Shown one piece after another: positions 15,783 to 37,920 of a stretch of 37,920 bases of DNA (positions within the stretch are counted from its first letter, which is position 1; each line of letters begins with the position of its first letter). The notes under the pieces are model-generated. The model was not told the origin of the DNA and ran no database searches. It was given only the letters and a program-made list of their open reading frames with translations. This stretch comes from a phage. Where the stretch lies: the NCBI GenBank assembly GCA_033178465.1, contig GCA_033178465.1_4726.4; one strand, 5' to 3'. Both the position numbers and the translations under genes were made by a program.

Positions 15783-16676
15783 TTATTCGGAAACGTTGTA
15801 ACCGAATACGGCTTTACCGTAGGTGTGGGTACCGTCAGCTAACGACACCACTAGCACATGGTTGTATGTGGCGTTAACACCCTTGTCGGTAGACTCGGTG
15901 GTAGCACCGTTATAGACAAAGGTAGCTGTTTGCAGATTGGCTTTCAGCTCGGTGATGATCTCCTCACTTACACCCGTCTGCTCTTTGATCAGCGTAGTCA
16001 GGTTACCTGCCAGGGTATCATCGATCTTGGTTTCATTACTGGTAATCGCCTGTAAGCCTACAGTGTAGGTGCTGAAGTCTAACGGATAGGTTAACAGACG
16101 TGCTGACGTTTTGGTACCATCGCCTTCATCAACGTAGGTTAAGTTACCCAGGTTGGTAACCTTGATGATGTTAGCCAGATCCAGCGTGGTGTTATAAACT
16201 TTAACTTGAACAGAACCATACCACGCCAACGAATCTTCTTTGGCTTCCAGGGTGATCGTCTGGATACCATGATCGTCGAAGGTAACAGGATTAGCTAACG
16301 TATCGGCTTTGATGTCTTTCGCTTTATCCAGGAACTTCTCACCGGAAGGCGTGATCATACCGTAGCGTTGAGCTACAAGGTCAACCACATCACCGATGGT
16401 GGTGTTCGCTTCAACGTTAACACGTACAGCGATCTTCTGGAACCACTTAGCCAGATCCAGACGATGGTAGGTAACATCGCGTTCATTGAAGTAAGGGGTA
16501 CCTTCACCAGGGCTAAGCGTTAAAGTTGCTTCTGGAGCAGAAGCGCTTTTGGATTTAAGAACGTATTTAAGATCACTGTATTGGAAGCTGGCACCAGTGT
16601 CGGCGTTGAGCTGGTTGATCTCATCAACGATAAGTTGCCAAGGTGTTTTTAAAGTAAGTGAAACTTGAGTTGCCAT
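15783..16676 (-). CDS. Paralog-family protein (297 aa), probable virion structural protein
   Basis: ATG 16676 with GAGGT upstream; shares the motifs TYHRLDL, LVAQRYGM and SLAWYGSVQV with the tandem paralogs at 28896-32515 and with the 180-aa protein; moderately optimised codon usage. Confidence 0.65.
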   Translation of the reverse strand: MATQVSLTLKTPWQLIVDEINQLNADTGASFQYSDLKYVLKSKSASAPEATLTLSPGEGTPYFNERDVTYHRLDLAKWFQKIAVRVNVEANTTIGDVVDLVAQRYGMITPSGEKFLDKAKDIKADTLANPVTFDDHGIQTITLEAKEDSLAWYGSVQVKVYNTTLDLANIIKVTNLGNLTYVDEGDGTKTSARLLTYPLDFSTYTVGLQAITSNETKIDDTLAGNLTTLIKEQTGVSEEIITELKANLQTATFVYNGATTESTDKGVNATYNHVLVVSLADGTHTYGKAVFGYNVSE

Positions 16677-16818: not shown

Positions 16819-17361
16819 ATGGCCTTAGACTTTAACAAAGCAGCGAAATCCCTTCTGCTTGATCTTATCAACACCAAAGCGACCCGCACGCTGACCGAAG
16901 AAGAACTGCAGTTCGGTACTCCGGCGGCATCTTCCGAACATTCTAAGAACACCGTTATTCAGCTGGATGCTGCAGTTGGTGCAGAAAACCTGCAGGGTAC
17001 TCAGCAGTTCTACTACGATCGTCTGGCTCTGTCCGACGTTTTCGCTGATGTAACTGGCGATGTTACTTTCGAACTGCCGCACGGTACCGACAGCATCCAG
17101 GCTTCTGAACTGGTAAGCAAGCTGGTCACCAAATTCGGCCTGGCTTCCCTGAACGGTGAAATCAAAGAAGAAACCTTCCAGCTGTCTGCAGGTACTGTTG
17201 CTCAGGTAACTCTGAACGCGATCGAGAATGGCATGGTATATACCGGCACTCTGCAGGTTGCTCTGACCTATGCAGCAGCACCGAAAGATGACCTGGCAAC
17301 CGTTCTGGCGGATAACGTAGCCGATGGCTTCGTGAAACCGACCGTTAGCGTTGTTGGCTAA
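16819..17361 (+). CDS. Highly expressed small paralog-family protein (180 aa), probable major virion component
   Basis: ATG 16819 with AGAGGA upstream; strong bias to CTG, CCG, GGT, AAC and TTC codons (the most host-optimised gene in the window); contains family motifs FYYDRLAL, LVTKFGL and MVYTGTLQV. Confidence 0.75.
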   Translation: MALDFNKAAKSLLLDLINTKATRTLTEEELQFGTPAASSEHSKNTVIQLDAAVGAENLQGTQQFYYDRLALSDVFADVTGDVTFELPHGTDSIQASELVSKLVTKFGLASLNGEIKEETFQLSAGTVAQVTLNAIENGMVYTGTLQVALTYAAAPKDDLATVLADNVADGFVKPTVSVVG

Positions 17362-18302: not shown

Positions 18303-19412
18303 ATGGAGTTACGTGTTTGTAAATGTTGCGGAGTGGAGAAATCTATTATTGAGTTCAAACCTACCACATCCGGGTATTACACAAGAACGTGTAAAAAGTG
18401 TTTGGTGGCATACAAGAAACAATGGAGGAAACTCAACCCAGATAAAGAACGTGCACAAATCAAACGTTATATGGAGAAATGTAAAAACAGAACAGGAGAT
18501 GTTAAGCTGGCTTACATCAGATCGTTGCAACCGGCGCTGCGTGTTAAGGCAAAAATAGACTACCCTGAAAATATTCTTCTCTTACATTGCTTTAAATGCG
18601 ATGGAGTTAAGCCGGTGGATAGTTTTGCTTTGGCTGCTGCTAGACCAACCGGTAGGTCGAATATTTGTCGAGCATGTTTGCAACAACACACCCACAACAG
18701 GAAATATCTCCCTACGGAACAGTTTTATCGGTGCCAACGTTGTGGTAAAACGAAACCAGCCGATCAATTTAGAGATCGATCCTCTGTGATTCGTGGAAAA
18801 CATTCTTACTGTTTAGATTGTGAAAAAGACGTTAAAGAAGAATTGTTGCGACGCAGAACTCCTGAATATCAGATTGAGAAACTAAAAGAGAAAAGTGTAT
18901 TGCTTGCGTGTAAACATGGACTGGATCCGGATAAGCTCTGGAAGAAATGCTCGAGTTGCGGCGAGATAAAACGACCATCCGATTTTTCTCGCAATTGCCG
19001 TGCAATAGATGGATACCAGTCTATTTGTAAACACTGTCGCTCGGCCAGTAGCGAAACATTCGCTGGATTCAGGAGACGTATCCATGCCGCCGTCGGTCAT
19101 GCGACGACCGTTGGTAAACTAACACGTCCTGATACATGCGAAGAGTGTGGCTGTAACGCATACACTGAGGCACACCATGACAACTATCTTAAACCTTTCG
19201 ATGTTCGCTGGTTATGCCGTAGCTGCCATCGTAAAGTCCATTTGAATTACGTATTTGTTGAAATACGTTATTTCAAGGAAAAAGGTTTAACGGTTGAAGA
19301 AGTTGTGCGTCGAGCTTACCCTGACGCTTTTGATTGGGTGGTGGTTAACCCGGAAGATAAGAATGCGCTAGTTATCGTCCGAGTACCACCACAGTTACGA
19401 GAGTTAGATTAA
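18303..19412 (+). CDS. HNH endonuclease with four N-terminal zinc-ribbon-like repeats (homing-endonuclease-like)
   Basis: C-terminal CEECG...HHDNY...WLCRSCHRKVH HNH motif; four repeats of C-x2-C-G-x2-K-x4-F...C-x2-C; visibly AT-richer than neighbours; opposite orientation to both flanking genes; start only 11 bp from the endolysin start. Confidence 0.7.
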   Translation: MELRVCKCCGVEKSIIEFKPTTSGYYTRTCKKCLVAYKKQWRKLNPDKERAQIKRYMEKCKNRTGDVKLAYIRSLQPALRVKAKIDYPENILLLHCFKCDGVKPVDSFALAAARPTGRSNICRACLQQHTHNRKYLPTEQFYRCQRCGKTKPADQFRDRSSVIRGKHSYCLDCEKDVKEELLRRRTPEYQIEKLKEKSVLLACKHGLDPDKLWKKCSSCGEIKRPSDFSRNCRAIDGYQSICKHCRSASSETFAGFRRRIHAAVGHATTVGKLTRPDTCEECGCNAYTEAHHDNYLKPFDVRWLCRSCHRKVHLNYVFVEIRYFKEKGLTVEEVVRRAYPDAFDWVVVNPEDKNALVIVRVPPQLRELD

Positions 19413-19570: not shown

Positions 19571-21619
19571 TCAAATACCTTTGGTTCCCTTCACGTGATG
19601 TGCGATTTCTTCAACCATTGCACGCAGGGCACGAAGCTGTTGGTCGTGTTCGTACCAACCGCCTAACAGAACCCCGCTATACACCATGGTGTCAAGACTT
19701 AACAGTCCTTTATCTGATACGTTGATCATTTCAGGGAACTGTTCTTGAACACGCTGTGCGATAACACCGATCTTCTCGACATCAGGATCGTAGTTGTGAC
19801 GGAAACGGGCAAGCCCGCTGCGCGCCATTTCGCGTAAACGTTCACTGAGAGATTCCGGATGATCTTTCAGATAACGAATGTCGTGTTTACTACGCTCATC
19901 TGAACGGATGTAAGCGTTAGGAACATCGATGTTGCTGTTGAAGTACAGCGCACTACCACCGCCTGCAGAGTTCCCCCAATAGAAGCGTGTGATCTCACCG
20001 CCGCCATTTTCCGTGATGATAACATGTTTACCTAAACGCGTACCACCGTTACCATCAACGAAGACCAGTTTGTTTCCGCTGTAAGAACCCCAGAACAAGC
20101 GTGTATCGATGATGTGTGTTGCAGCGAGACGGGCGTTACGTGGTGTAGAATACACGGTGTTAACATCTTGCTGCGCATGTGCATCGGAAGCGATACCATA
20201 GTTCTGTACGTTACCCAATCCCACCTGCGCTTTTGTAACAGCATGCGGGTTATCCCGACGGTTAGCGTGAGCGTTAACCAGATCACCCGCTAATTTCTGA
20301 ATTGCCCAGTTGGTAGACTGTGGTGTCATGTAACGGTTCGTTGCAGAACCACCTTGCGCTTCAGCTTGGTTAGCGGTTGGGTAGTTCTCAACACTTCCTA
20401 ACCCTACTTGTGCCTTAGACACTTGGTGTGGGTTATTCTTATCGGCGATGTGTGCATTAAGCGGAACTAACGCAAAGGTCTCAATGGACGCTTTGGTTGT
20501 GTTCGGTGCCATTAATCGGTTAGCTGCAACACCAGCACGCGCTTCTTCTTCAGAAGCCATTGGGTAGTCTTGCACATTCCCTAACCCAACCTGTGCTTTG
20601 GTCACCCTGTGTGGGTTGTTGTAATCGGCTTTATGCGCATTAAGCGGAATCAGTGCGAACTGTTCAATCGCTGCAACAGTACGTAGCGGCGTCATGAAAC
20701 GGTTGTTCGCTGTACCCGCTTTTGCTTCAGAGTCCGACGCTGTCGGGAAGTTATCAACGTTCCCAAGGTTAACCTGTGCTTTGGTGACGCTATGCGGGTT
20801 ATCCCGGCGGTTAGCATGCGCGTCGACCAGATCGCCTGCCAGTTTAGCAATCGCCCAGCCAACCGTCTGTGCTGTCATGTAACGGTCAGGTGCAGTACCG
20901 GCTTCTGCCTCCGCCTTGTTTGCGGTAGGGTAGTTCTGTACGTTACCTAGTCCGACTTGGGCTTTTGTTACTTCGTGCGGGTTATCGGTACGGTTAGCAT
21001 GTGCGTAATGCAGATCGGTCAGATCTTTATCCGCCGCTTGCATGTCTTTGCGTAGCTGATCGATTGCCGCCCAGAGACGGTTATCGGACGCAGCATCACC
21101 GATAAGTATTGCAGCTTTTAACGAATAGATCGCTAAGCAAAGATGCTCGGTACCGTAGATGGCGCTAACGTGGTGGATGTGTGGTTCAGGCGGATAGAGT
21201 TCTGGTTTGTTCTTGATGTCGTCCCAGTTGATCGGACGATCGTCAAGTTTGAGTTCTTCGATAGCCTGATATAACGCGTCAATAAGACTTACGTAAACAC
21301 CACCGATGATACGATAGTCGTTAACTAACGTACCCTCGATATCATCGTTGATGATGGCGATGGCTGCACAGATTTCTTTACCAGCGTAAAGCGTAGCGTC
21401 CTGATACAAGAAGATGGGCTTATAATCCACGCCTCGTACCAGTGTCTTACCGGTAAGCTTTTCAGTGATGACCAGACTTTCGGTGAAGAACGGTCCGCCA
21501 TCAAGGGCGTAACATTTATTCTCGGTTCGTGGAACGGTATGCTCTTCACCAACGATGTGGTTGCTGGCGAGTGTACCGGTCCAGTCCTCGGGGTACTTCA
21601 GGGTAATTGGTGTCGACAT
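19571..21619 (-). CDS. Tail fibre protein with about five tandem 61-aa repeats and C-terminal intramolecular-chaperone (peptidase S74-like) domain
   Basis: Five repeats with core NPHxVTKAQVGLGNVxNY...YMTP; C-terminal SDERSKHDIRYLKD...GLLSLDTMVY matches the self-cleaving chaperone domain known from endosialidases and L-shaped tail fibres; N-terminus similar to gene 25306-27459. Confidence 0.8.
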   Translation of the reverse strand: MSTPITLKYPEDWTGTLASNHIVGEEHTVPRTENKCYALDGGPFFTESLVITEKLTGKTLVRGVDYKPIFLYQDATLYAGKEICAAIAIINDDIEGTLVNDYRIIGGVYVSLIDALYQAIEELKLDDRPINWDDIKNKPELYPPEPHIHHVSAIYGTEHLCLAIYSLKAAILIGDAASDNRLWAAIDQLRKDMQAADKDLTDLHYAHANRTDNPHEVTKAQVGLGNVQNYPTANKAEAEAGTAPDRYMTAQTVGWAIAKLAGDLVDAHANRRDNPHSVTKAQVNLGNVDNFPTASDSEAKAGTANNRFMTPLRTVAAIEQFALIPLNAHKADYNNPHRVTKAQVGLGNVQDYPMASEEEARAGVAANRLMAPNTTKASIETFALVPLNAHIADKNNPHQVSKAQVGLGSVENYPTANQAEAQGGSATNRYMTPQSTNWAIQKLAGDLVNAHANRRDNPHAVTKAQVGLGNVQNYGIASDAHAQQDVNTVYSTPRNARLAATHIIDTRLFWGSYSGNKLVFVDGNGGTRLGKHVIITENGGGEITRFYWGNSAGGGSALYFNSNIDVPNAYIRSDERSKHDIRYLKDHPESLSERLREMARSGLARFRHNYDPDVEKIGVIAQRVQEQFPEMINVSDKGLLSLDTMVYSGVLLGGWYEHDQQLRALRAMVEEIAHHVKGTKGI
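20190..21010 (-). repeat. Tandem in-frame repeats, about 183 bp period, 5 copies (tail-fibre repeat)
   Basis: Recurrent plus-strand block resembling GTTCTG-ACGTT-CC-A-CC-AC-TG-GCTTTGGT-AC at about 20198, 20383, 20567, 20750 and 20933. Confidence 0.75.
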
Positions 21620-25305: not shown

Positions 25306-27459
25306 TTATAACGTTTCGAAGTCGGTTGCTTTGATAACCGCGTTGAAGTTGGCAAGGAATTCCTTAAGCAGTGCTTGGAAGACATCACGAAACGCCGTGT
25401 TCGTCTGCAAGCTGGTTAAATAATCGTTCTTAAGGTAATCACTCAGCTTACCGATCTTCTGCATCTTCTCGCCGTCTTGGTTCTCTCCAGGTTCTTGGCT
25501 GTTGATGTTAACCCATTTGATCCCTTCGAGATCGCCATCGGCAAGGAAGTTAGCGGGCGTCTCATCGTCGTTCAGGATTTTAATTGTGTCGCTGGATTCA
25601 ATGCCACCGTAAGCTTCCAGAAGCTGGTTGACTGTTAGCGTGTTGGTGTTGATTGAACCATTGACACCATCAATACCGATGCCTGCACCTGTGATGGATG
25701 TCGCCGAAAGATCGATCGGTCCGGTTAACTTACCACCGTTGATCGGTAACGCACCAACTTGCTCAGCGGTGTGGGTGTGGTTGGCTAACGCCGCAAATGC
25801 CACAATTGACTTGTAAGTCGAGTACGGTGTCATGTACGTCGTTTGGTTAGTCTTGTCGGCAGCTTGCGTGTCGGTGGCGACAGTAAAGTCCTGCACGTTC
25901 CCCAGACCAACTTGAGCCTTGGTTACACCATGGGGGTTGCTCTTATCGACAACGTGTGCTGCAAAACCATCACCTGCTAAAGCGATGATTGCCGCTTTTG
26001 TCGCAGCCGGTGTCATATAGCGGTTGGTTGCTTCACCCGTTTGCGCCTCTTCGTCGGAAGCAACAGGATAGTTCTCAACGCTCCCCAAACCGACCTGAGA
26101 TTTTGTTACTTGGTGTGGGTTTTCGGTATTCGCGATATGACTACTGAACCCTTGACCAGCCAGTTGCTCGATTGCGTAACGAACAAGTATTGGCGTCATG
26201 TACTTGTTGTTAACCTGACCATCGATAGCTTCTTGGGTGGTGGCAACCCCGAAGTTTTGCACGCTCCCCAACCCAACTTGAGCTTTCGTAACAGCGTGGG
26301 GGTTATTGGTGTTACCGATGTGATCGGTAACCGTTGGGGTGATTAATCCTGCGATAGCGGCTGCCGTGGTCGCAGGGGTCATGTATTTATCGTTAGCAAC
26401 ACCCGCAGCAGCTTCTACGTTAGATGCTACACCGTAGTTCAATACATTTCCTAACCCAACTTGAGCTTTGGTTACCCCGTGGGGGTTGTTCTTGTCTCCG
26501 GTATGGGTTGTCAACGTAGCGTTAACGTTATCGATACGCGTGCTTAAGCCATCGGTGATTGCTTTGATTGCGGCTCGTACACCCGCTGGTGTCGTGTACA
26601 GATTGGTGGCCGTACCGGTAATGGTTGCATTACTATCGGCTGTACCGTAGTTCTCAACGTTTCCGAGTCCCACCTGGGCTTTAGTTACCTTGTGTGGGTT
26701 GTTGTAGTTGCTGATGTGCGCAGCAGCACTATCACCACTCAGGTTAGCGATCATCTTACGCGTCATCGCCAACGTCATGTACAGATTTTCACCGATGGTT
26801 TCCAGATCGCTCTCGGTCGCCGTTGTGAAGTTCTGAACATTCCCCAATCCAACTTGAGCCTTGGTTACACCATGGGGGTTATCGCGACGATTCTCGTGTT
26901 GTAGCAATGCGGTCATTGCTTTATTGAACCCTTCTTCAAGCGGTTCTTTCAATGATTCGATTGCCGCCACCACATCGTCCCACGTCATTGTGTCGGTTTC
27001 GACATTATGTTGGTGGTTGATTGGCGGGAATACGGAAGGAACGTCAGCAACCTTTTCCCAGAACGTAACGCGGGGATCGTAAAGGTTGTTGGCTAAAACG
27101 TTAAGAATTTGTTGTTGATCAAGTGTAAACTCACCCCCCAGTGAATAGTAGTTCAGTTGCAACTGTCCACTGAATGCGGTGTCCAACAGCATGATGGAAC
27201 CGTATAATTCCAGGCCGGTCAGCGCAGCCATGGCACGGAAGGGGTGAGTGCATAAAAAGTCAACGCCTTCTTCCAGATACGCGTTTGTTTCAGGGTTGTA
27301 GATCTTTAACCCATTACGAAAATATGGCGCGTATTTAGGAACGAGAAAGTTAAATCCGGTCCCCGTGGAAGGACGGACAGTGACGAGTTCTTCTGGAACC
27401 CATGCGCCATCCAAATTCCCCTGCGGGTTATACGGAAGGCGTTTAATTTCATCTGTCAT
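25306..27459 (-). CDS. Tail fibre protein with about six tandem 61-aa repeats (717 aa)
   Basis: Six repeats with core NPHxVTKAQVGLGNVxN...YMTP; N-terminal domain similar to gene 19571-21619; no S74 domain at the C-terminus. Confidence 0.75.
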   Translation of the reverse strand: MTDEIKRLPYNPQGNLDGAWVPEELVTVRPSTGTGFNFLVPKYAPYFRNGLKIYNPETNAYLEEGVDFLCTHPFRAMAALTGLELYGSIMLLDTAFSGQLQLNYYSLGGEFTLDQQQILNVLANNLYDPRVTFWEKVADVPSVFPPINHQHNVETDTMTWDDVVAAIESLKEPLEEGFNKAMTALLQHENRRDNPHGVTKAQVGLGNVQNFTTATESDLETIGENLYMTLAMTRKMIANLSGDSAAAHISNYNNPHKVTKAQVGLGNVENYGTADSNATITGTATNLYTTPAGVRAAIKAITDGLSTRIDNVNATLTTHTGDKNNPHGVTKAQVGLGNVLNYGVASNVEAAAGVANDKYMTPATTAAAIAGLITPTVTDHIGNTNNPHAVTKAQVGLGSVQNFGVATTQEAIDGQVNNKYMTPILVRYAIEQLAGQGFSSHIANTENPHQVTKSQVGLGSVENYPVASDEEAQTGEATNRYMTPAATKAAIIALAGDGFAAHVVDKSNPHGVTKAQVGLGNVQDFTVATDTQAADKTNQTTYMTPYSTYKSIVAFAALANHTHTAEQVGALPINGGKLTGPIDLSATSITGAGIGIDGVNGSINTNTLTVNQLLEAYGGIESSDTIKILNDDETPANFLADGDLEGIKWVNINSQEPGENQDGEKMQKIGKLSDYLKNDYLTSLQTNTAFRDVFQALLKEFLANFNAVIKATDFETL
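25880..26930 (-). repeat. Tandem in-frame repeats, about 180-190 bp period, 6 copies (tail-fibre repeat)
   Basis: Recurrent plus-strand block at about 25888, 26075, 26253, 26438, 26650 and 26830; source of the repeated antisense pseudo-ORFs in the track. Confidence 0.75.
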
Positions 27460-27563: not shown

Positions 27564-28844
27564 ATGTATACATTGGTAAAAACTTACGGATTACCCGTAG
27601 GTTCTGGCACGGCCTGGACAGCGCTTGAGGCGGGTGAAAGTGTCCTGAGTACGTTGTTCTCAACGTATCAAAAACTCAAGATCCAGGTCCATGAAAGTTA
27701 TGCTGATCAGCAACAAGTTATTGATCTGTACGCGTTCCAATCCGAGCTTCAAAACAGTAGCGATACGCTTAATGCGTGGCTGAAGGCGAAATCGGATGCG
27801 CACACCAACCTTCGAGGACAGCCTGGTGAACTGTCGATTAAAACCCACAAGCTTTATTGCCATGACGTTGTTACTGTAGGCTTTCTCCCTAAAGTCGGTA
27901 ATAGCGGTTATCATCCGAGCAACGCGATCCCTGAGTCGGAACGCACCGATATCCTGTTGACGAAAGCGAATACGAATTACGAAAATATCGGCAAACACTG
28001 CTTGTTCACCGTAGGCGGTTATGTTCATCCTCACGTCTACGGTAAAGACGTTGGTGTCTATATCCAAGGTGGGTTCAAGACGGCACAGCGTAGCCAAGAA
28101 AACGATATCGGCATGATTGATTTTAGCCGTATCGGGAGTTTGGAAATCCATGCTATCACAGAAGAGATGATTGCTGATTCCACGAAGCTCTTGCCGTATA
28201 AGGACGAGATGTACTTGCGGTTACCGCGAAAGGTCGCCGAAGATGAAACCGTCGCGCTGGTGTTCGGGGGATATTTACATCTTCTTGACGATTGTTACAC
28301 GATCGTTAGTGACACGACAGCGAAAATAAACTGCATTAACATGTTTCTTTATGAAAGATACTTCCGTTCCCGCAAATACCTTGATCTAACATCTCTTGGT
28401 ATTCTGTTGACTGAGGAAGACCCACAGTCCGACATTGTTGCCAATCGTTTATTGTCCGATAAAGCATTAAAAGCGTGGGTGACGCATCCTTGCAGTTTCT
28501 GGGTGTATATCAAAGCAACATCAATTCAGGTTACACAAGAACCTTTGCCACGAAGTGGTGTACCAGGACAATATTTCTTAGGTAAGAAACCGGAAGGATT
28601 GATTCGAGCTGATCTCGGCGAGTTACCGGCTTACGTGCAGACCTATGAAAAACCGTTATGGGTACTTCACTCGCGCTGGGGACTTCGTAAAAACATGCTG
28701 TTTGAAAACACATTGTACAAACATACCCGCGTTAAGCGGCTTAACGATACGCCTTATCTTCACCAGGTCTGGTTGGAAACGCATGCAACGTTGCAGACAG
28801 TACACAAGCTTGAATTGATCGATTCCAGTCAGAAAAACAAATAA
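27564..28844 (+). CDS. Hypothetical protein (426 aa), lone plus-strand gene inside the structural block
   Basis: ATG 27564 with AGGGGG about 9 nt upstream; no motif recognised. Confidence 0.6.
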   Translation: MYTLVKTYGLPVGSGTAWTALEAGESVLSTLFSTYQKLKIQVHESYADQQQVIDLYAFQSELQNSSDTLNAWLKAKSDAHTNLRGQPGELSIKTHKLYCHDVVTVGFLPKVGNSGYHPSNAIPESERTDILLTKANTNYENIGKHCLFTVGGYVHPHVYGKDVGVYIQGGFKTAQRSQENDIGMIDFSRIGSLEIHAITEEMIADSTKLLPYKDEMYLRLPRKVAEDETVALVFGGYLHLLDDCYTIVSDTTAKINCINMFLYERYFRSRKYLDLTSLGILLTEEDPQSDIVANRLLSDKALKAWVTHPCSFWVYIKATSIQVTQEPLPRSGVPGQYFLGKKPEGLIRADLGELPAYVQTYEKPLWVLHSRWGLRKNMLFENTLYKHTRVKRLNDTPYLHQVWLETHATLQTVHKLELIDSSQKNK

Positions 28845-28854
28845 CCAAACATAA

Positions 28855-28886
28855 CCCTCCTCCAACCCGTAAGGGAAGGAGGAGGG
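28855..28886. terminator. Conserved hairpin at convergent gene junction (loop AACCCGTAAGGGAA)
   Basis: Stem CCCTCCTCC / GGAGGAGGG (9 bp); 14-nt loop identical to the one at 4094-4107. Confidence 0.45.
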
Positions 28887-28895
28887 AATATGCTG

Positions 28896-29801
28896 TTATG
28901 CTACATATAACGTTAGATAACCATCGATGAGCGTATTCATCACACTGAGTTGGAGTACGACAGCTTTACTAACATCCGTACGTACACCGAACGGTAGTGT
29001 TTTGAATTGCTCTGGATCGGCTATTACTTGCGCATTCTGCAAGTTGAGCGGTCCAGGCACTGCTGACAGTACCCAGCGATCGTTGACCATAAGGCCGTCG
29101 ATCTCTTCAGAGAGACCCAATTGCAGTGTGTTCATTTCTGCGATTAGTGCCTCCGATTGCGTATCGCCCGAGGTTAACGTATATCCATCGGTAAGTGATG
29201 CCAGAACACCAGCAGATACGAACCAGTTGTACGAAACAATAGCGCCTGGGAGTTTACTGCTATCTCGATCGATGATATAATTCAACCCAGCCAACATATT
29301 GTTGCGAACGAGGTTGTTGAGGTCGTTATGTCCTGAGGTTAACTCAACAAGTAACTGACCAACCCATACTTGGTTACCGGGTTTAGGTGTTATCACAACC
29401 TGTATCGGTGACTTGGACTTATCCAGATCCGCGTCGACAATCTCGGTTTTGTTGAGAAGGATACCGTACGTCGATGCTAAGACAGGTAATATCTCAGAGA
29501 CCTTGGTTAATGCATCTAAGGTTTCGATCTCGATGGGCCAGTGGTGCTGTCCGCCAGACCAAGTACCCAGTTTACCAAGATCGATGCGGTTATAATAGAT
29601 GTCGACAGAGTTCACCAGCCCTGAACCCGGTTGGGGATGCACGGTTAACTTGCTGTTACGCTTGTACCCTGTGCTTTCAGAAGCTTCACCGATAACCAGT
29701 TTATCCAGCGTTACGCCTCGAGCATCGAAATCGCTATGCTTTCGAATCAGCCGAAAGAGGATTTCTTTCGATTCTAACCCCAGGATTTCACTGTACTCCA
29801 T
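28896..29801 (-). CDS. Paralog-family protein (301 aa), probable structural
   Basis: ATG 29801 with AAGGGG upstream; family motifs YYNRIDLG, LASTYGILL and VWVGQLLV. Confidence 0.65.
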   Translation of the reverse strand: MEYSEILGLESKEILFRLIRKHSDFDARGVTLDKLVIGEASESTGYKRNSKLTVHPQPGSGLVNSVDIYYNRIDLGKLGTWSGGQHHWPIEIETLDALTKVSEILPVLASTYGILLNKTEIVDADLDKSKSPIQVVITPKPGNQVWVGQLLVELTSGHNDLNNLVRNNMLAGLNYIIDRDSSKLPGAIVSYNWFVSAGVLASLTDGYTLTSGDTQSEALIAEMNTLQLGLSEEIDGLMVNDRWVLSAVPGPLNLQNAQVIADPEQFKTLPFGVRTDVSKAVVLQLSVMNTLIDGYLTLYVA

Positions 29802-29816
29802 TTAACACCCCTTAGG

Positions 29817-30701
29817 TTACGGTAGGATTTCTGCGCCCGTCGGGCCTGCCTTACGAGCTTCCAACGCACCAAGGTCGTATTTCAATGTCAGCGTATCGTT
29901 GGTAGTATAAAGGTTGTGGTAAGTCGAAATCAGATCGGTAACCTGCGCACCGACGATTTCGTTCATGTCGAAGGCCGAACCTTGACCATCATCAGCACGA
30001 ATGATTTTATCGCCCGCAGAGACCATCCCAATTTCAGAAATAACCGCGTACTCTTCACCACCTTCGGTGAGTTTAGCCACATTGAGATATTCGTTAATAT
30101 CCCACGGCGTCCAAACCAAAGAGACTTTACAGCTGTAGTCGTAGTACTCTCCGGTCGCTACCAGAATTCCGGTTGTTGGAATATCTGGTCGGGTGGGGTT
30201 GAGGTTTGCGTCGGTTGGATGCCATTCGATGGTCTGAGCGACGCCGTCGACGTATTTGGTATAACGCATGGAGCGGACAACGTTATCGAAATCGATGCGA
30301 CGACCGTAATAACAGATATACTTTTTACCGCTTTCCAGTGTCTCAATACGACGTAACCCAAATTTAGCGCGTTCGTCTGTGGTCAAATCGTTACCAACTT
30401 CACGCATCACGAACGGCTTGATTTTCCACGGTGAAAGATCGCTTGCTTCGTGAGCGATCGGCATCGAGGAAGGGATACCGTTAGCGTTGCGGATAAATTC
30501 ATGACCTTGGTTGCCGATACAGAAGTAACGTACAGCAGGATTACCCTCGGGGTAAACCTTTGATTGAATCTGAAGCTTTTCATTCAAGGTGCTGTGTTCT
30601 TCCCATGCATGAGGAAGACCGAGCGTAAGGTTAGTTTGTACTTGACCGCCGATAATCGTACGGACGATACGATCGGTAGCACGGATTTGTGTAGAAGCCA
30701 T
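29817..30701 (-). CDS. Hypothetical protein (294 aa), possibly a divergent member of the paralog family
   Basis: ATG 30701 with AGGAAA upstream; weak family-like motifs YYGRRIDFDNV and VSLVWTPW at similar spacing; membership uncertain. Confidence 0.55.
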   Translation of the reverse strand: MASTQIRATDRIVRTIIGGQVQTNLTLGLPHAWEEHSTLNEKLQIQSKVYPEGNPAVRYFCIGNQGHEFIRNANGIPSSMPIAHEASDLSPWKIKPFVMREVGNDLTTDERAKFGLRRIETLESGKKYICYYGRRIDFDNVVRSMRYTKYVDGVAQTIEWHPTDANLNPTRPDIPTTGILVATGEYYDYSCKVSLVWTPWDINEYLNVAKLTEGGEEYAVISEIGMVSAGDKIIRADDGQGSAFDMNEIVGAQVTDLISTYHNLYTTNDTLTLKYDLGALEARKAGPTGAEILP

Positions 30702-30717
30702 GTCTTTTCCTATTTAA

Positions 30718-31569
30718 TCAGTTGTATTGCATCAACAGGATACCGCCGTAGTTCGTGCAGTAATCTTGGCTAAGCGTAACGATAACAGCGTTAGCAAACG
30801 CAGGGTTAACAGGATAACCCTGTGCGATAAGTTCTGTTGTTTTACCGGTCGCGAGCACGGTGGCTCCGTAAAGGTTGTTTTCGTCTTCACGGCCGTTATA
30901 AACCCATGGGGTTGGTGCAACGTTGTTGAATAAGCTAACCAATGCGCTTAAGTTACCGCCAACTTTTAACCCAGCAAGATCGGAACGGATCGCCGTACAG
31001 TCTATAGCGTAACTGTAGACCAGTGCTTGGATACGATTTGCGGTGTAGTACGGGAAATTGAGACCGGTCATCACCGAAGTCTTCATCATCCCCGCAATAT
31101 CGTGGGCACTATCGAGGAGATAGAACGTAACACTTCCCGTCCAAGCCAATCCGGTTGTTTTCAACTCTACGGTGTGAGGGAACGGATATTCATCACCTCG
31201 TACAATCGGAGAATCGACGCAGCTATCCTGATCGATAACGATTCCGTACGTTGATTGAATCAGAGGGATAAGATCGTGCGTCGTTTTAACCCCAGCATCG
31301 ATAGCAAGCTTCGGTTCCATTCCCAAGAAGAAGTCTTGAATAGGGATACGATCGTACCACACGTAGCTGCTTTCACGGTATTGTGCTGGTGTTACTGTTG
31401 CCGAAGGCGATACCTTAGCGCGTGTGTTCCGTTTATACGCATGGTTTCCGTTTTCAGCAACATCCGTGATATCAAGTGCATCGAAGTTAAAGTCGAAGTC
31501 AGGATTGGCCGCCTGAATAAGTTCAGCGACCAGTACTTTAGGACTTTTGTTTAACAATTTCTGACTCAT
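30718..31569 (-). CDS. Paralog-family protein (283 aa), probable structural
   Basis: ATG 31569 with AAGGAA upstream; motifs WYDRIPIQDF, LIQSTYGIV, GLAWTGSVTF and DYCTNYGG. Confidence 0.65.
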   Translation of the reverse strand: MSQKLLNKSPKVLVAELIQAANPDFDFNFDALDITDVAENGNHAYKRNTRAKVSPSATVTPAQYRESSYVWYDRIPIQDFFLGMEPKLAIDAGVKTTHDLIPLIQSTYGIVIDQDSCVDSPIVRGDEYPFPHTVELKTTGLAWTGSVTFYLLDSAHDIAGMMKTSVMTGLNFPYYTANRIQALVYSYAIDCTAIRSDLAGLKVGGNLSALVSLFNNVAPTPWVYNGREDENNLYGATVLATGKTTELIAQGYPVNPAFANAVIVTLSQDYCTNYGGILLMQYN

Positions 31570-31579
31570 TGTTTATTCC

Positions 31580-32515
31580 TTAGCCTTGTTCTTCTGGAGA
31601 ACGACCCTGGAGGCTTGCGGTATGTCCGTCGACGTTGTAATAGAAAATCAATGGACCGCCGACGGCAGTACAGTAGTTTTCATCCAGACCGATCTCGATA
31701 CCGTATTGGTAACCTGCTCGTGCTGGAATACGTCCGCCTAACTCGCCGTTGAAAGCCACTTTAGCGTTATACAGGTTATACGGTGCGATGTTGTCGTCTA
31801 ATACCCAACGATCGGCGGTCATTTCAGCCAGAAGATCGGCGACCACCACATCGCTAATGACCGTACCTGTTACCAGCGAAGCCAGCAGTTCACCGTAATC
31901 AGAAGTATCACGACTGTAACTGTAGATCTCACCGCTGGCACGTACGCCTTGACCGAAGAACTTAAGACCGTCCAGTTCCTTGATTGCGATAATATCATCA
32001 AGATTCGGTACACGCGACTTCATCAAGATACGAACACTTCCCGTCCAAGCCAGGCAATTAGATGCGACACGAAGCAATTGTCCGTTAACGGTATCCCAGT
32101 TAAGTTCGTCGTTGACAATTTCTTCTGCGGTAAGGCCGAGACCGAAACGTTCTTTGATGATAGGCCAGATATCACGCATCTTGGTGGCGTCTGGTGCATC
32201 GATAAGAATAGGTGCTACGTTACGCAGATACGCACCGATGTTAATACGATCGTAATACAGCGTCGTCGAACCTTCGTAATCGTCTAACTCAGTAAGCTTA
32301 GCGGTTGCTGTCGCCGTAATCTGGGTGTCGCGCTCGTAGGCGCTTTGGTTGGTGGTTGGTGTTCCTAAAACCAATAATTCAGGGGTTAGAACATGCTCTC
32401 CGTTCTGAGGTGGGTTATCGTGGTTGATAAGACCATACACGAGATCGGATGAGGGTAAAGAGACGTCGACCGGGTAAAGTTCGGTGTCGTCAATAGTTGT
32501 TACCGTATCACTCAC
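31580..32515 (-). CDS. Paralog-family protein (311 aa), probable structural
   Basis: GTG start at 32515 with strong GAGGAGG 5 nt upstream; motifs YYDRINIG, IKERFGLGL, LAWTGSVRI and NYCTAVGG. Confidence 0.65.
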   Translation of the reverse strand: MSDTVTTIDDTELYPVDVSLPSSDLVYGLINHDNPPQNGEHVLTPELLVLGTPTTNQSAYERDTQITATATAKLTELDDYEGSTTLYYDRINIGAYLRNVAPILIDAPDATKMRDIWPIIKERFGLGLTAEEIVNDELNWDTVNGQLLRVASNCLAWTGSVRILMKSRVPNLDDIIAIKELDGLKFFGQGVRASGEIYSYSRDTSDYGELLASLVTGTVISDVVVADLLAEMTADRWVLDDNIAPYNLYNAKVAFNGELGGRIPARAGYQYGIEIGLDENYCTAVGGPLIFYYNVDGHTASLQGRSPEEQG

Positions 32516-32574: not shown

Positions 32575-34986
32575 TTAAACGTCCTCGATAGGCAAAGGTT
32601 TAACAATCAAACGATTGAGCGGATTCGATAGACGCATACTGATAGGCTTATACGCAACATGATTCGTCTCACTTAGAGCCACTGATCTGAAACGACCGTT
32701 CAACTGTTTGTAAATCGGTTCTATCCAAAGACCTCGAAGGTCGTGTTTGCGGAAACGTTGTTCGAACGGTTTGATCGGAGTTACAGTCAACCCACGCAAC
32801 GACTCTGCCGGTAAACGCTCACGAAGGTCGCGTGGTGCCCGACCTGGGAACGGTGCAAGCCACAAACCATCGAGCGGATTTTTACGGAAACGCAACGAGA
32901 CAGGATCGCTAATGACTTGTGCCCAATATTGCGTACTGAATCGAACCGTTTGGGTATTCTCGTAACCGCTACAATCGCACCAGGTTGGTTTCGGAGGCGC
33001 TTCCAAACTTTCAACCGCTGATTCACGCCAGTTCGTCATCGGGTTGTTATCATGCACGAATTTGATAACTTCCGTAGCCTGGTTATCCGTATCATGAACG
33101 TTTGCTTGCGCCCAGTCTTCCCACAGTTCTTCACTACCGCTTACTAAACTCGAACCAAGACGAACGGCGATTTTGTTTAGTGGTTTGATTGGATCGCTGT
33201 TGATTGTCTGGATAAAATGGATGGTGTAACTGCTCAATGTCTTAAGCAGCTGCAGCATTCCGTATTGAATATCCTTAAGACTGGTAACATCTTCCAAATC
33301 TTGACCGGTGGCCTTTGTGAAGATATCGAGAGCCAGAATTCCCGCCTCTTCTTGACTGATTGCGTCAAGCTCCCAATCCATCGCTAAGAACCATTCCTTG
33401 TAAAGCTGCCCAATACCGAAGTCGACACCAACATCCATGTAGAAATTCTCAACGATCGCTTCAGCCATGCCTCGAGCTTGATAATGCTCTTGGAGCTGAT
33501 ACATGAATTGATGGCGACGCCAGCCCTGGTAGATCTCGGTAACGGCGTTGAGAAACTCTTCAGTGCTGACGACCGGACGCAATGTTACTTGCTTATCCAA
33601 ACACCACCAGATCAGTTTATCGGGAATGATAGCCGGATCGGTAATGCTACGGAGATGGTCGAATGTCGGTAGTGTTAACACCCTGACATGGTTAGCATGG
33701 ATCTTAGGTACTTCAATCAGCGTCATGCCCATCGAATAGTTCAGCAAGTACAAGAACAGCTTGTATGCATCTTTCATCGACATCGTCATGGCATCACCCG
33801 TCACCGGGTTGGTTGTCGTTAACCGTGACTGATACATGCCTATTGCGCTAAGATGAATCCATTCATTCAGCAGGAAATCGTACTTAGGATACAATTCACT
33901 GTCTGTAAGGTCTTCGGCTTCACTTTCCAACACCTTGGTCGTTAAGGTATTGTTGTCATGCATCGACATCTTCTCTATCGTGCGGTTAAGCTCGGTATAA
34001 TACTCCGCCTCGTTATCCCGCGCTAAAGGGAACTGTTGCTGCATCACGGTGGTGACCTTACGTCTTACCGTGCCATTACCGACGATCTCTTGAAGGTTAA
34101 GCGGTTTACGCTCCATGTAAACTGCAGGTTTTAACGTCTGGGGTATCTCGGAAGCGTCTTGTTTGATCGAGAACGCACCGATTGGAATCCCACGATCGGT
34201 TAATACCTTTTGAATGAGCTTATCGTAGTTTTCCGTTCTGCCCATGTTTCTTTCAACGTAAGCGATGTTACGATAGAACCAGAGCATTTGGGATTCGGTC
34301 ATGTATCGCTTGAATCGATCGAGACCTTGATGGCTTGCCAGATAACTCCAGATATGGAAGCTATGGGCATAATGGGTATGACAGTTTTCCCAACGAATAC
34401 CTTTTATCATCTCAGGTATTTGTGTGAATAGGATGGCGTATAGCGCAGGCCAATGAAGCATATCGACGCTCTCATATGCCGGATGTTCCCAGCGTCTGAA
34501 GTAATCGTCGATTTCTTGCTGTAAACGTGGAATAAGATTGGCCTCGCGTGACTCAACCTCTTGTGTATCGTACCAGAGAATCTCATGATTGCGTGCCGCA
34601 ATTGCTTTCTCGATATCGATGGGGTTAAGGATACCCAAGATCAACATACGTTGTTCCGGGTACCGCGCAATTAAACGATTGAAATAATCTCCACCATACG
34701 CGTATTCCCTTGCCGTCATGCGATGCCGTAACATGTTTTCCTTGGTGAACTCGATCTCTTCGAGCGTATCCAGGGAATTTACGGTCATCATTGTCTGACA
34801 AGGATGATACTCGCCAGCGAGATTCATGTAGTATAACCACGTGCGTGGGTCGTCCCCGACGGCCATCTGGTAGACTTCGGAAACCTTGAGGTTTAACCGT
34901 TCTGCCGTGATGTCGCTTTTAATAATCAGGGTGTCCGTTAGACGCTGCACGCTTTCCGAATAAAGCTGATAGTCAGTGTTGGACAC
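32575..34986 (-). CDS. Large hypothetical protein (about 800 aa), probable structural
   Basis: Uninterrupted frame 32575-35055; proposed GTG start at 34986 has GGAGG 7 nt upstream, whereas the track start at 35055 is TTG with no SD; no motif recognised. Confidence 0.55.
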   Translation of the reverse strand: MSNTDYQLYSESVQRLTDTLIIKSDITAERLNLKVSEVYQMAVGDDPRTWLYYMNLAGEYHPCQTMMTVNSLDTLEEIEFTKENMLRHRMTAREYAYGGDYFNRLIARYPEQRMLILGILNPIDIEKAIAARNHEILWYDTQEVESREANLIPRLQQEIDDYFRRWEHPAYESVDMLHWPALYAILFTQIPEMIKGIRWENCHTHYAHSFHIWSYLASHQGLDRFKRYMTESQMLWFYRNIAYVERNMGRTENYDKLIQKVLTDRGIPIGAFSIKQDASEIPQTLKPAVYMERKPLNLQEIVGNGTVRRKVTTVMQQQFPLARDNEAEYYTELNRTIEKMSMHDNNTLTTKVLESEAEDLTDSELYPKYDFLLNEWIHLSAIGMYQSRLTTTNPVTGDAMTMSMKDAYKLFLYLLNYSMGMTLIEVPKIHANHVRVLTLPTFDHLRSITDPAIIPDKLIWWCLDKQVTLRPVVSTEEFLNAVTEIYQGWRRHQFMYQLQEHYQARGMAEAIVENFYMDVGVDFGIGQLYKEWFLAMDWELDAISQEEAGILALDIFTKATGQDLEDVTSLKDIQYGMLQLLKTLSSYTIHFIQTINSDPIKPLNKIAVRLGSSLVSGSEELWEDWAQANVHDTDNQATEVIKFVHDNNPMTNWRESAVESLEAPPKPTWCDCSGYENTQTVRFSTQYWAQVISDPVSLRFRKNPLDGLWLAPFPGRAPRDLRERLPAESLRGLTVTPIKPFEQRFRKHDLRGLWIEPIYKQLNGRFRSVALSETNHVAYKPISMRLSNPLNRLIVKPLPIEDV

Positions 34987-35013: not shown

Positions 35014-37920
35014 ATGAACGATATAAATAAAGGGCGCGTCGCCCTCGAACGTCAAATGAGCAATAATGACGTTGCGAAGGCACTCATGAACAAATTTGTC
35101 GCTCCTGCTCCGCAGTCACGTCTTTATAATACACGTGATGCGGAAGGAGCGAACGGTCGTTTCGGGTTAGTTGTTCCCGACCAAATGACGATGAACACGG
35201 TTACGCGTGCGACCGCGACAAACATCGAGGATAATAAAAACATCCTCGAGTTGTTCCCTGAACTTAAACGCGTGATGCAGATCTATGTTGCCGCGTTGAC
35301 GAACCCTAACGATCTTAAGACGGTCGAGATGTTTATCGACAGCGAAGATTTCCCCGGCAGAGTCGCAGAAATCGTTCAGCCGATGATCGATACCATCGAC
35401 ACGCATTTTAAGAATATCTATAAAATAAAGACGCTTATCCCTCGTATCATCGAAGACGTCTTCTTTATCAAGGGCAGTTATAACTTCGTTGTTCTGCCAG
35501 AAAGCACGCTCGACCGCGCCATTAATGGTAACGGTCAACTGAAACTTGAAGAATACGGTTTTAAAGACAACCATTTTGCAAGTTGGGGACTTTTAGGTAA
35601 CGACAGTCGCAAACGCCACGAAAATCAATTACCTGCAACAGTTTCGATGGAAGATTATTTCTCAGGCGTTAATGAAACCATACCGTACGATCCTGTTGTT
35701 CGCATAGACAGCATTAAATTTACCAATACCCTGCTTCGTGATAAGGATGGTAAATTCATTGAAGCGAAGATCGATATTCCGGATATGGTTACGGTTGTCG
35801 ATAACCCAGATATCCTCCGCATGCCCATTCTGCATCAACGTCGAGCAGCGACCGCGGTACAACGTGCGTTACGCGCAAACACGTTAGGAGGTAGTGGTTT
35901 GGTAACGCTGTCAGGCGATCCGACCCTAACCGCTAACCGACGTGAGCTGACGCAAGAACAGGTTAATGAGATCTGGAATAAACTCAACATCCAGCGTCAC
36001 ACCAAGATATCTCCCGTTTACGCGCTGGCAACCCCAGATACACTCGATCGTCAAAGCGTCGGTCATCCTGGTGTGATGCACGTACCACCTGAGGCATTAG
36101 AACCTGTACATGCGCCTGGTGATCCGGAGAACCATATCGGATATTTGGTTCAGTTGGATGAGTTTGGTTATCCGGTGCGTTTGGTTGAAGATGCTGCGTA
36201 TTACAAGCAGTTGGAAGGTCGGTTGTCGAAGATCACCGCGGATATCGCGGGTACTTCAAGCAACGGCATGGCGAGCGAGATGATCGGTGCAGCCAAGAAC
36301 ATGATCCAAGGTACGTCATGTAATCAGGTAGACATGTCGGCCTTCGTATCGTCGTACGAATCGCTGATGCAACGTTACATCGTTGAACGTATTGTCAACG
36401 GTTATCTTGGTAGTGCGGTGGAAATCGGCGCGACATCATCGTTTTATCTGTCGATGCTTGCCCGTAGCCTCGCTCACAAGCAGACCCGTGTTTTGTTTAT
36501 TCCTCGAGAGATGGTGACTTACATCGCTTATGAATACAACAAATACGGTATCGGTCGTTCGCTGCTTGAAAGTACGAAGATGATCTCGTCGCAACGAGCC
36601 ATGCTCATGGTTCAAGAACTGATGGCAAAAATCAAAAGTTCGTTGAACTATACGACGCTAAGCGTAATGCTTGAAGACACCGACAGAAACCCGGTCGATA
36701 CCGTCGAACAAGCGCTGCATAGTTTCGCTCGCGTCTACCAGTCTGGTTTCCCGTTGGGTGAAACTAACCCAATGGATATCATCAACGCGTATGAACGAAG
36801 CTCGATTCGATTGAAGGTTGAGGGGAATAACCCACGCTTCCCGAAATTGAATACAGACGTCAGTGTTGAGCAGCGTAACTATCAGTCTCCTGATAATGAG
36901 CTGATGGATCGTTACCGTCGTGACCATTTCATGGGTTTGGGTGTGTCTCCGGAGATTATCGATACTTCCTACCAATCTGAATTCGCAGCTTCTGTGATTA
37001 CAGCTAACGCGATGCAAGAGAAACAGTTCACGGTTTGTCGTGAGGTGATCACGAATGGATTATCGGACCACATCAAGAAATATACGGCATACAGTCCCGT
37101 GTTGTTGACGTCGTTACGAAACACGGTTCGTGCGAACATGTCTAAGCTTTCCCAGGCGCAATTGAAGCAGCTTTTTGGTAGCGATTTCGAAAACGGTGTT
37201 ATCCGTAACGTTAACGCCTATCAGGAGATTGACGACCAATCAGCAACAATGGATCTGGATTACACTAAACCAGAAGTCCAGGAAGTTATTGCCGATGCTT
37301 ATGTGTCCATGTTCTTAAACAGCCTGCGTGTGCGTTTACCGGACAGCAATGCTCGTCGCCTTGAAGATCAGGTACGCGAATATAATCAGTACAAGGAAGC
37401 GATTACTGCGCAACTTGATGATTATTTAACGCCTGATTACGTCATGGGTCTGGGTGGGGTTGATGAAACAACGCTGCAGATGATCCGCGCATGCATTATT
37501 GGTACCGCGATGCGTACGTGGGCAAAAGAGAACAACTTCAATCAGGAGCTGGCTGATCTCTTCAGTCTTGACGATAAGAAGAATGCCGTGCAAGATTGGA
37601 AACGTATGTCCATGGAGCATATTGAAGTCATGGGTAAATGCATGGGTGATTTTGCATTGTATATTCAGAATCTGACGAAGAAGATTGAAGAGAAGATGGG
37701 AGCTCAAGCACAGGACGGTAGCGTTTCATCTGATGGTTCGTGGTCATCCGATTCAAGTAGCGATACCGGTTCTTCTGATGACTTCGGTGGCGGTGACGAT
37801 TTCGGAGATACCGATTTCGATACCGAAACGATGGAGGAAACCTCAACAGAAGAAACAACTACATCTGAGGAAACGACGACCGACACAACGTCAGAAGACG
37901 ATACTTCAGGTGACATTGTC
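35014..37920 (+). CDS. Large hypothetical protein, 3'-truncated by the window edge (at least 969 aa), with acidic Ser/Thr/Asp/Glu-rich C-terminal region
   Basis: Open frame from ATG 35014 (AAGGAG 9 nt upstream) to position 37920 with no stop; absent from the track because it has no stop in the window; spot-checked in frame at 35401, 36001, 36301, 37021, 37681 and 37861; no P-loop seen. Confidence 0.6.
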   Translation, partial: MNDINKGRVALERQMSNNDVAKALMNKFVAPAPQSRLYNTRDAEGANGRFGLVVPDQMTMNTVTRATATNIEDNKNILELFPELKRVMQIYVAALTNPNDLKTVEMFIDSEDFPGRVAEIVQPMIDTIDTHFKNIYKIKTLIPRIIEDVFFIKGSYNFVVLPESTLDRAINGNGQLKLEEYGFKDNHFASWGLLGNDSRKRHENQLPATVSMEDYFSGVNETIPYDPVVRIDSIKFTNTLLRDKDGKFIEAKIDIPDMVTVVDNPDILRMPILHQRRAATAVQRALRANTLGGSGLVTLSGDPTLTANRRELTQEQVNEIWNKLNIQRHTKISPVYALATPDTLDRQSVGHPGVMHVPPEALEPVHAPGDPENHIGYLVQLDEFGYPVRLVEDAAYYKQLEGRLSKITADIAGTSSNGMASEMIGAAKNMIQGTSCNQVDMSAFVSSYESLMQRYIVERIVNGYLGSAVEIGATSSFYLSMLARSLAHKQTRVLFIPREMVTYIAYEYNKYGIGRSLLESTKMISSQRAMLMVQELMAKIKSSLNYTTLSVMLEDTDRNPVDTVEQALHSFARVYQSGFPLGETNPMDIINAYERSSIRLKVEGNNPRFPKLNTDVSVEQRNYQSPDNELMDRYRRDHFMGLGVSPEIIDTSYQSEFAASVITANAMQEKQFTVCREVITNGLSDHIKKYTAYSPVLLTSLRNTVRANMSKLSQAQLKQLFGSDFENGVIRNVNAYQEIDDQSATMDLDYTKPEVQEVIADAYVSMFLNSLRVRLPDSNARRLEDQVREYNQYKEAITAQLDDYLTPDYVMGLGGVDETTLQMIRACIIGTAMRTWAKENNFNQELADLFSLDDKKNAVQDWKRMSMEHIEVMGKCMGDFALYIQNLTKKIEEKMGAQAQDGSVSSDGSWSSDSSSDTGSSDDFGGGDDFGDTDFDTETMEETSTEETTTSEETTTDTTSEDDTSGDIV

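Follow-up and report, generated by a model that had tools for sequence, protein, structure and literature searches.

DUF7941 virion paralogs interleaved with a baseplate spoke gene in a Goslar-like jumbo phage

The DNA under study, termed the window, is a stretch of 37,920 nucleotides from a phage (GenBank assembly GCA_033178465.1, contig GCA_033178465.1_4726.4) in which the interval 28896-32515 contains three related genes of the DUF7941 family and one unrelated gene. Across the whole region the window shares 97.2% nucleotide identity with Escherichia phage vB_EcoM_Goslar (Goslar), a nucleus-forming jumbo phage of E. coli in the Chimalliviridae, and the window phage is a Goslar variant. The interval corresponds to Goslar gp31-gp34 with identical gene order and gene lengths, and the Goslar names are used below. 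The open reading frames (ORFs) described for the interval in an initial annotation were all present, and all are on the minus strand. The genes and the adjoining hairpin are as follows:

28896..29801, minus strand: DUF7941 paralog, ortholog of Goslar gp31; 301 amino acids, full-length form with N-terminal domain (NTD), linker and C-terminal domain (CTD)
29817..30701, minus strand: DUF7208 protein of the baseplate spoke, orthologous to Goslar gp32 and homologous to phiKZ gp139; 294 amino acids
30718..31569, minus strand: DUF7941 paralog, ortholog of Goslar gp33; 283 amino acids
31580..32515, minus strand: DUF7941 paralog, ortholog of Goslar gp34; 311 amino acids, GTG start
32575..34986, minus strand: baseplate protein of the upper wedge, orthologous to Goslar gp35 and homologous to phiKZ gp128 and SPN3US gp82
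28855..28886, minus strand: hairpin resembling a terminator, CCCTCCTCC...GGAGGAGGG, with a T-rich run after it; 9-bp GC-rich stem, read directly from the sequence

The four ORFs of the interval are separated by gaps of 10-16 bp. The gp35 gene is the first of this co-directional block and occupies ~2.4 kb upstream of the DUF7941 trio and gp32; its end at 34986 was taken from the Goslar annotation, and the program-made ORF runs on to a TTG at 35055. The gp35 product matched phiKZ gp128 (E 2.7e-114) and SPN3US gp82 (E 7.8e-69) in phmmer searches and is modelled in the inner baseplate of the Goslar virion structure. SPN3US gp238, which adjoins the tail-associated gp237, was also considered as a gp35 homolog and gave no phmmer match. 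The hairpin is positioned directly 3′ of the gp31 stop codon, between the convergent gp30 and gp31 genes, and the Goslar record has a terminator annotated at the matching place; a terminator scan missed the hairpin because its loop exceeds 8 nt. Thus, the shared orientation, the short gaps and the hairpin after gp31 mark the five genes as an operon-like block. A scan for sigma-70-like sites returned three compared to 9.5 in shuffled sequence, a result that carries no information for a phage that has RNA polymerases of its own.

The interval had initially been annotated as a tandem array of four to five paralogs, of which three proved to be related. BLASTP aligned gp31 with gp33 (E 1e-10), gp31 with gp34 (E 1e-12 over 278 columns) and gp33 with gp34 (E 5e-20) at identities of 24-26%. 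The shared motifs that had been noted at similar spacing, YY(D/N)RI, YG(I/L) and AW(T/V)GSV, are in register across the three-protein alignment as the blocks YYDRI, F/YG-L/I and LAWTGSV, so that the similarity is collinear as well as significant. The blocks include several of the best-conserved positions in an alignment of 113 DUF7941 members, namely Y88 (92%), R90 (99%), G125 (84%) and G159 (91%) in gp34 numbering. Against the Pfam DUF7941 profile (PF25613), which has a gathering threshold of 27 bits, gp31, gp33 and gp34 scored 191.7, 162.9 and 213.4 bits, respectively, with matches covering approximately positions 2-275 of 276, and the Pfam search detected no further domain in the trio. The proteins also match PHROG 1037 (phrog_1037), described as 'virion structural protein', and are 98-99% identical in amino acid sequence to their Goslar orthologs (gp31, 99.0%). 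The identity of the trio and its membership of DUF7941 are essentially certain: the gene products are full-length DUF7941 virion proteins orthologous to Goslar gp31, gp33 and gp34.

The fourth gene, at 29817-30701, had been suggested to be a more divergent member of the array, which was ruled out. BLASTP revealed no relationship to the three paralogs (E 0.4, 11 and 1.3), the hhalign profile-profile probability for a match with DUF7941 was 0.1%, and DUF7941 was not among the Pfam matches. Instead, the gene product belongs to Pfam DUF7208 (PF23838; 324.3 bits). It matches a 99% identical chain in PDB entries 11lx, 11pb and 36za (E 8e-202), being identical to 11lx_Aa at 292 of 294 residues, and matches phiKZ gp139 (9xpg/9xqd) at E 8e-43. 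In the Goslar and phiKZ virion structures the spoke protein (gp32/gp139) forms five end-to-end dimers per spoke that run from the wedges to the peripheral baseplate. As gp32 is unrelated to its neighbors and interrupts the set, the tandem set comprises three genes rather than four or five.

The trio was already known. The family has a name, is partly characterised, and the genes are explicitly annotated in a near-identical phage: a preprint on Goslar (Basu et al., bioRxiv 10.64898/2026.04.21.720040, April 2026) assigns gp22, gp23, gp31, gp33, gp34, gp86, gp91, gp92, gp93 and gp161 to DUF7941. The flagged genes are near-identical copies of catalogued Goslar proteins and not a new kind of element, and the family to which they match confidently, although named, has been characterised only recently and in part. 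Mass spectrometry of Goslar virions gave ~8.5 copies of gp31 (5.6-13), ~112 of gp33 and ~27 of gp34 per particle, compared to ~577 of gp22 and ~2144 of gp23 (Table S4 in Basu et al., 2026). The initial view of the genes as probable structural genes outside any classical fold was borne out, the trio being virion paralogs whose sole structural neighbor is a 2026 model of phiKZ gp127. A phmmer search of the PDB with gp34 alone found nothing meaningful, and a profile of seven sequences was needed to reach gp127. The fold of the trio is shared with the NTD of gp127, which is the one family member that has been placed experimentally.

Goslar gp22 is described as having two globular domains with a linker between them, the linker being disordered in the monomer (Basu et al., 2026). 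The AlphaFold2 model of gp34 has a mean predicted local distance difference test (pLDDT) score of 78.4, with confident blocks at residues 12-166 and 190-297 and values <50 at 169-179, and predicts the same two-domain architecture with a linker; gp31 and gp33 are assigned this architecture by full-length alignment. Although poorly predicted in the monomer, the linker is as conserved as the folded domains and bears the motif DLxxhhxxxxLxGLxYP (L172 77%, L181 83% and G183 74% in gp34 numbering, among the 113 members). In the top 150 of the 2756 family representatives, metagenomic proteins were found in which two to three NTD-linker modules are in tandem in a single polypeptide (P0013, P0021, P0028, P0069, P0088, P0107 and P0129) or in which the CTD is duplicated to give an NTD-CTD-CTD arrangement (P0022, P0072, P0083, P0098 and P0113). 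These fusions look like covalent versions of the proposed head-to-tail chain, and the conserved linker together with the tandem-module polypeptides is in keeping with a head-to-tail joining of separate modules as the normal state. Purified gp22 appears as filaments in negative stain and is predicted by AlphaFold3 to assemble head to tail into oligomers (Basu et al., 2026).

A search of the window with a profile of the three paralogs identified two further members, ~12 kb from the trio:

15783..16676, minus strand: distant DUF7941 paralog, Goslar gp22, full-length form (profile E 1.4e-22; Pfam 175.6 bits)
16819..17361, plus strand: short-form DUF7941 paralog with NTD and linker only, Goslar gp23 (profile E 8e-12; Pfam 74.7 bits)

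The Pfam match of gp23 is confined to N-terminal profile positions 4-174, and in Goslar the gene adjoins endolysin gp24. The window accordingly contains five DUF7941 members, and no set of seven candidates, as had been proposed for alignment, was found. More broadly, tblastn located 553 DUF7941 places in 124 phage records, all listed matches being to jumbo phages of enterobacteria and Vibrio. A word-indexed homolog search gave only six close relatives, in contrast to the exhaustive representative search, which revealed the real size of the family (the 2756 representatives at E<=1e-3, given without taxonomy). The family is stated to be restricted to chimalliviruses (Basu et al., 2026). However, DUF7941 has been described in Spaid-like secreted or membrane proteins of male-killing Spiroplasma and some other Spiroplasma species (PMC13375240, 2026), and thus the domain may not be exclusive to chimalliviruses.

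The arrangement of the block was not peculiar to Goslar and the window. In Erwinia phage RAY the order is wedge gp7, DUF7941 gp8, DUF7941 gp9, DUF7208 gp10 and DUF7941 gp11, and one metagenomic contig has the same wedge-DUF7941-DUF7941-DUF7208-DUF7941 order. Reciprocal best hits pair gp34 with RAY gp8 and gp33 with RAY gp9. Reduced versions of the locus occur in phiKZ (gp128-gp127-gp126) and in SPN3US (gp82-gp83-gp84). The conserved order and the reciprocal best hits indicate that the duplication is ancient, and not the unusual recent tandem event that had been supposed. In a single pairwise comparison of window and Goslar genes, the ratio of non-synonymous to synonymous substitution rates (dN/dS) was 0.04-0.06 for the trio, within the range of 0.02-0.10 for the wedge, spoke and gp30 genes. 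The trio is under purifying selection. Values for gp22 and gp23 were 0.35 and 0.26 at amino acid identities of 90 and 94%, respectively, making these the fastest-evolving of the 14 proteins compared, with dN ~tenfold apart from that of the trio. The contrast suggests a functional split inside the DUF7941 family.

More than 2,500 DUF7941 subunits may be present per Goslar virion (Basu et al., 2026), and their place and role are disputed, the alternatives being a micron-scale fiber cloud that is borne by the baseplate and finds hosts, and a polymer associated with the head; the answer bears on how nucleus-forming jumbo phages find hosts and what they deliver. The Goslar preprint proposes that a DUF7941 'fibre cloud' is anchored on the peripheral baseplate (Basu et al., 2026). 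In the phiKZ atlas (PMC13250141, PDB 9XQD), DUF7941 protein gp127, with gp126, occupies the outer tip of the gp139 band in the outer peripheral baseplate. The Goslar preprint writes this entry as 9QXD, the PDB copy being 9XQD, and sometimes refers to the family as 'DUF4391'. Taking the published incorporation and copy numbers in Goslar virions, the gp22 filaments and the position of gp127 together with the architecture, gene order and selection described above, the favored explanation, with somewhat better than an even chance of being correct, is that the trio acts at the baseplate. DUF7941 modules would chain head to tail, each subunit docking through its linker/CTD onto the NTD of the following one, and gp31, gp33 and gp34 would be the conserved, low- to mid-copy members proximal to the baseplate. 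At least one of them would close off the gp32 spoke band at its outer end, in the manner of gp127 (with gp126) on the gp139 band, and the capping protein would serve as the attachment point that seeds or connects further DUF7941 subunits. The ~8.5 copies of gp31 would suit 6 or 12 sites.

Several observations weigh against this explanation. The Goslar baseplate maps have no density for any DUF7941 protein, and filaments have been reported experimentally for gp22 only (Basu et al., 2026). The fold of the three-module fusion P0013 comprised three NTD folds with a predicted template modelling score of 0.46, low-confidence junctions and no defined geometry between modules, and therefore docking is not demonstrated by the fold. 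By phmmer, phiKZ gp127 is closest to gp22 and then to gp33, and gp34 had no match to gp127 at E<=10. Orthology between gp31 and RAY gp11 is ambiguous, since the score of RAY gp11 is higher with gp22 than with gp31. The most substantial difficulty is posed by SPN3US, a Salmonella phage whose 'paralog family B' has ~20 members and has been described as potentially larger than any other phage paralog family (Thomas 2016; Ali 2017; Scheuch 2023). Profile matches indicate that this family is the same as DUF7941: the window-protein profile matched SPN3US gp138-145 and gp148 (E 1e-17 to 5e-54) and gp83 (E 1e-20), and gp237 also was matched. Family B goes unmentioned in the Goslar preprint. When heads were purified from a tailless amber mutant of the SPN3US tail tube, all of gp138-154 as well as gp160 and gp83 were retained at head/wild-type ratios of 1.1-1.7, and the ratios of wedge gp82 and spoke gp84 in these samples fell to 0.02 and 0.06, respectively (Table S2 in PMC10052503). 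Among SPN3US proteins, gp31, gp33 and gp34 match best to gp138-143, each of which was scored 'Head'. Moreover, the gene for gp83 is flanked by those of the wedge and the spoke and yet its product remains with heads, and thus gene neighborhood does not predict location. The idea that wedge-adjacent DUF7941 genes specify baseplate-bound proteins and the others head-bound proteins was therefore rejected in its simple form. The minimal SPN3US module (80727-84325) consists of wedge gp82, short DUF7941 gp83 and spoke gp84; it is adjoined by gp81, which is homologous to Goslar gp36 and phiKZ gp129 and is scored as a head protein, so that this conserved locus mixes head genes with tail genes.

The partition with heads in SPN3US and the missing density in the Goslar baseplate leave a head role for the trio as a serious rival. 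The three proteins would then be either inside the capsid, as candidate ejection or inner-body-associated proteins, or on the capsid exterior, and not on the baseplate, which is a tentative reading with appreciably lower probability than baseplate placement. The SPN3US heads in question, of mutant 255(am107), were doubly purified on cesium chloride (CsCl), with known tail and baseplate proteins at <7%, and the head assignment of family B was repeated with an independent tailless mutant; the retained proteins include those that the window profile detected (E 1e-17 to 1e-54), with the best SPN3US matches of the trio among them. On the other hand, direct modelling puts gp127 in the outer baseplate of phiKZ, and SPN3US gp237, a short-form DUF7941 protein, goes with the tail, being the only family member to do so (ratio 0.06; PMC10052503). 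The high-resolution capsid shells of Goslar and phiKZ have no DUF7941 protein assigned, the trio is apparently co-transcribed with the wedge and spoke genes and is under the same selection regime, and the lineage-specific expansion in SPN3US renders one-to-one orthology uncertain.

A divided family would accommodate both sets of observations, and is viewed as a rather doubtful proposal, slightly behind a head location for the trio itself. The gp31, gp33 and gp34 proteins would be position-specific baseplate adaptors, and the abundant, fast-evolving gp22 and gp23 would be head-bound in a structure of their own, which would be a polymer that is internal or ejected, or else a coat of filaments anchored to the capsid, as counterparts of SPN3US gp141 and gp160. 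The published baseplate fiber cloud would then be true for only a minority of the proteins. If correct, such a split would reconcile SPN3US genetics with phiKZ electron cryo-microscopy. The remaining interest of the locus is in this conflict between head and baseplate, in the rate contrast between the trio and gp22/gp23, and in the natural multi-module fusions.

The initial annotation had also listed adaptors or a diversified host-interaction set among the candidate roles. An adaptor or host-interaction role resembles the proposal in the Goslar preprint, whereas diversification is contradicted by the dN/dS values of the trio. A recently duplicated, diversifying receptor-binding or host-range set would be in keeping with the carbohydrate-binding, glycosidase or leucine-rich repeat domains of other Goslar DUF7941 proteins (gp86, gp92 and gp161; Basu et al., 2026) and with the strong variation in DUF7941 copy number among phages (553 places in 124 records; nine in one SPN3US locus). 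However, no domain other than DUF7941 accompanies the trio, the paralogs are only 24-26% identical, and the duplication is ancient as judged by the order kept in RAY and the metagenomic contig; the reading is largely refuted and has little probability. Very improbable, finally, is that the trio comprises tail tube, capsid decoration or lysis-regulator paralogs, the first two of which had been initial candidates: these roles are held by gp217 and gp77, respectively, in the Goslar structure, structure comparison detected no fold similarity of the trio to tube or decoration proteins, its orthologs were found in Goslar virions, and the lysis claim, which stems from the short-form phiKZ gp143 (profile E 1.3e-10) that adjoins an endolysin gene as gp23 does in Goslar and that is non-essential according to a transposon-sequencing preprint citing another preprint for 'lysis regulator', covers only the short form near endolysin and not the trio in the baseplate block.

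Other features of the window are the genes bordering the block, two fiber-like genes and one inserted ORF:

27564..28844, plus strand: phiKZ gp130 homolog, Goslar gp30 (phmmer E 1.3e-27); convergent with gp31
35086..37920, plus strand: virion gene, Goslar gp36, homolog of phiKZ gp129 and SPN3US gp81; divergent, cut by the window end
19571-21619, minus strand: fiber-like gene, Goslar gp25; with gp29, five to six copies of a ~55-amino-acid repeat
25306-27459, minus strand: fiber-like gene, Goslar gp29; repeats as for gp25
18303-19412, plus strand: ORF of 369 amino acids with a Pfam Stc1 domain match (E 1e-7), on the opposite strand between endolysin gp24 and fiber gene gp25

The phiKZ gp130 protein is a 'star lobe' connector of the outer baseplate (PMC13250141). 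The gp36 product matched phiKZ gp129 (E 2.9e-80) and SPN3US gp81 (E 2.6e-29) in phmmer searches. The repeats of gp25 and gp29 share the motif NPHxVTKAQVGLGNV, and the C-terminal end of gp25 is a Peptidase_S74 intramolecular chaperone domain. Goslar lacks the ORF at 18303-19412, with 126 bp at that place, and blastn matched the flanks only. The segment looks like a 1.15-kb mobile insertion that possibly carries a homing-endonuclease-like gene.

Compared with known systems, phiKZ gp127 is only 14-17% identical to the trio. The phiKZ locus has two DUF7941 members, one of which is a short form of 147 amino acids, and the spoke gene gp139 is elsewhere in the genome. SPN3US family B resembles the Goslar family in possessing full-length forms of ~30 kDa and short forms of ~19 kDa, in its tandem arrays and in very unequal abundances. 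It differs in that most members are encoded in a single array of 17 genes, apart from the baseplate genes, with nine DUF7941 genes in a row in the part of the array examined (115393-126383), and in partitioning with tailless heads. In RAY, gp8, gp9 and gp11 are in an identical module order from the wedge to the last DUF7941 gene, but are ~33% identical or less to the window proteins. The closest counterpart is Goslar itself. The two phages differ by the 1.15-kb insertion elsewhere in the window and by a nucleotide identity of 97% in the region, and among the Goslar DUF7941 proteins gp22 alone, and not the trio members individually, has been purified (Basu et al., 2026). Goslar gp31, gp33 and gp34 are orthologs of the window proteins at 98-99% amino acid identity, are encoded in the same order and with the same lengths, and have been detected in virions.

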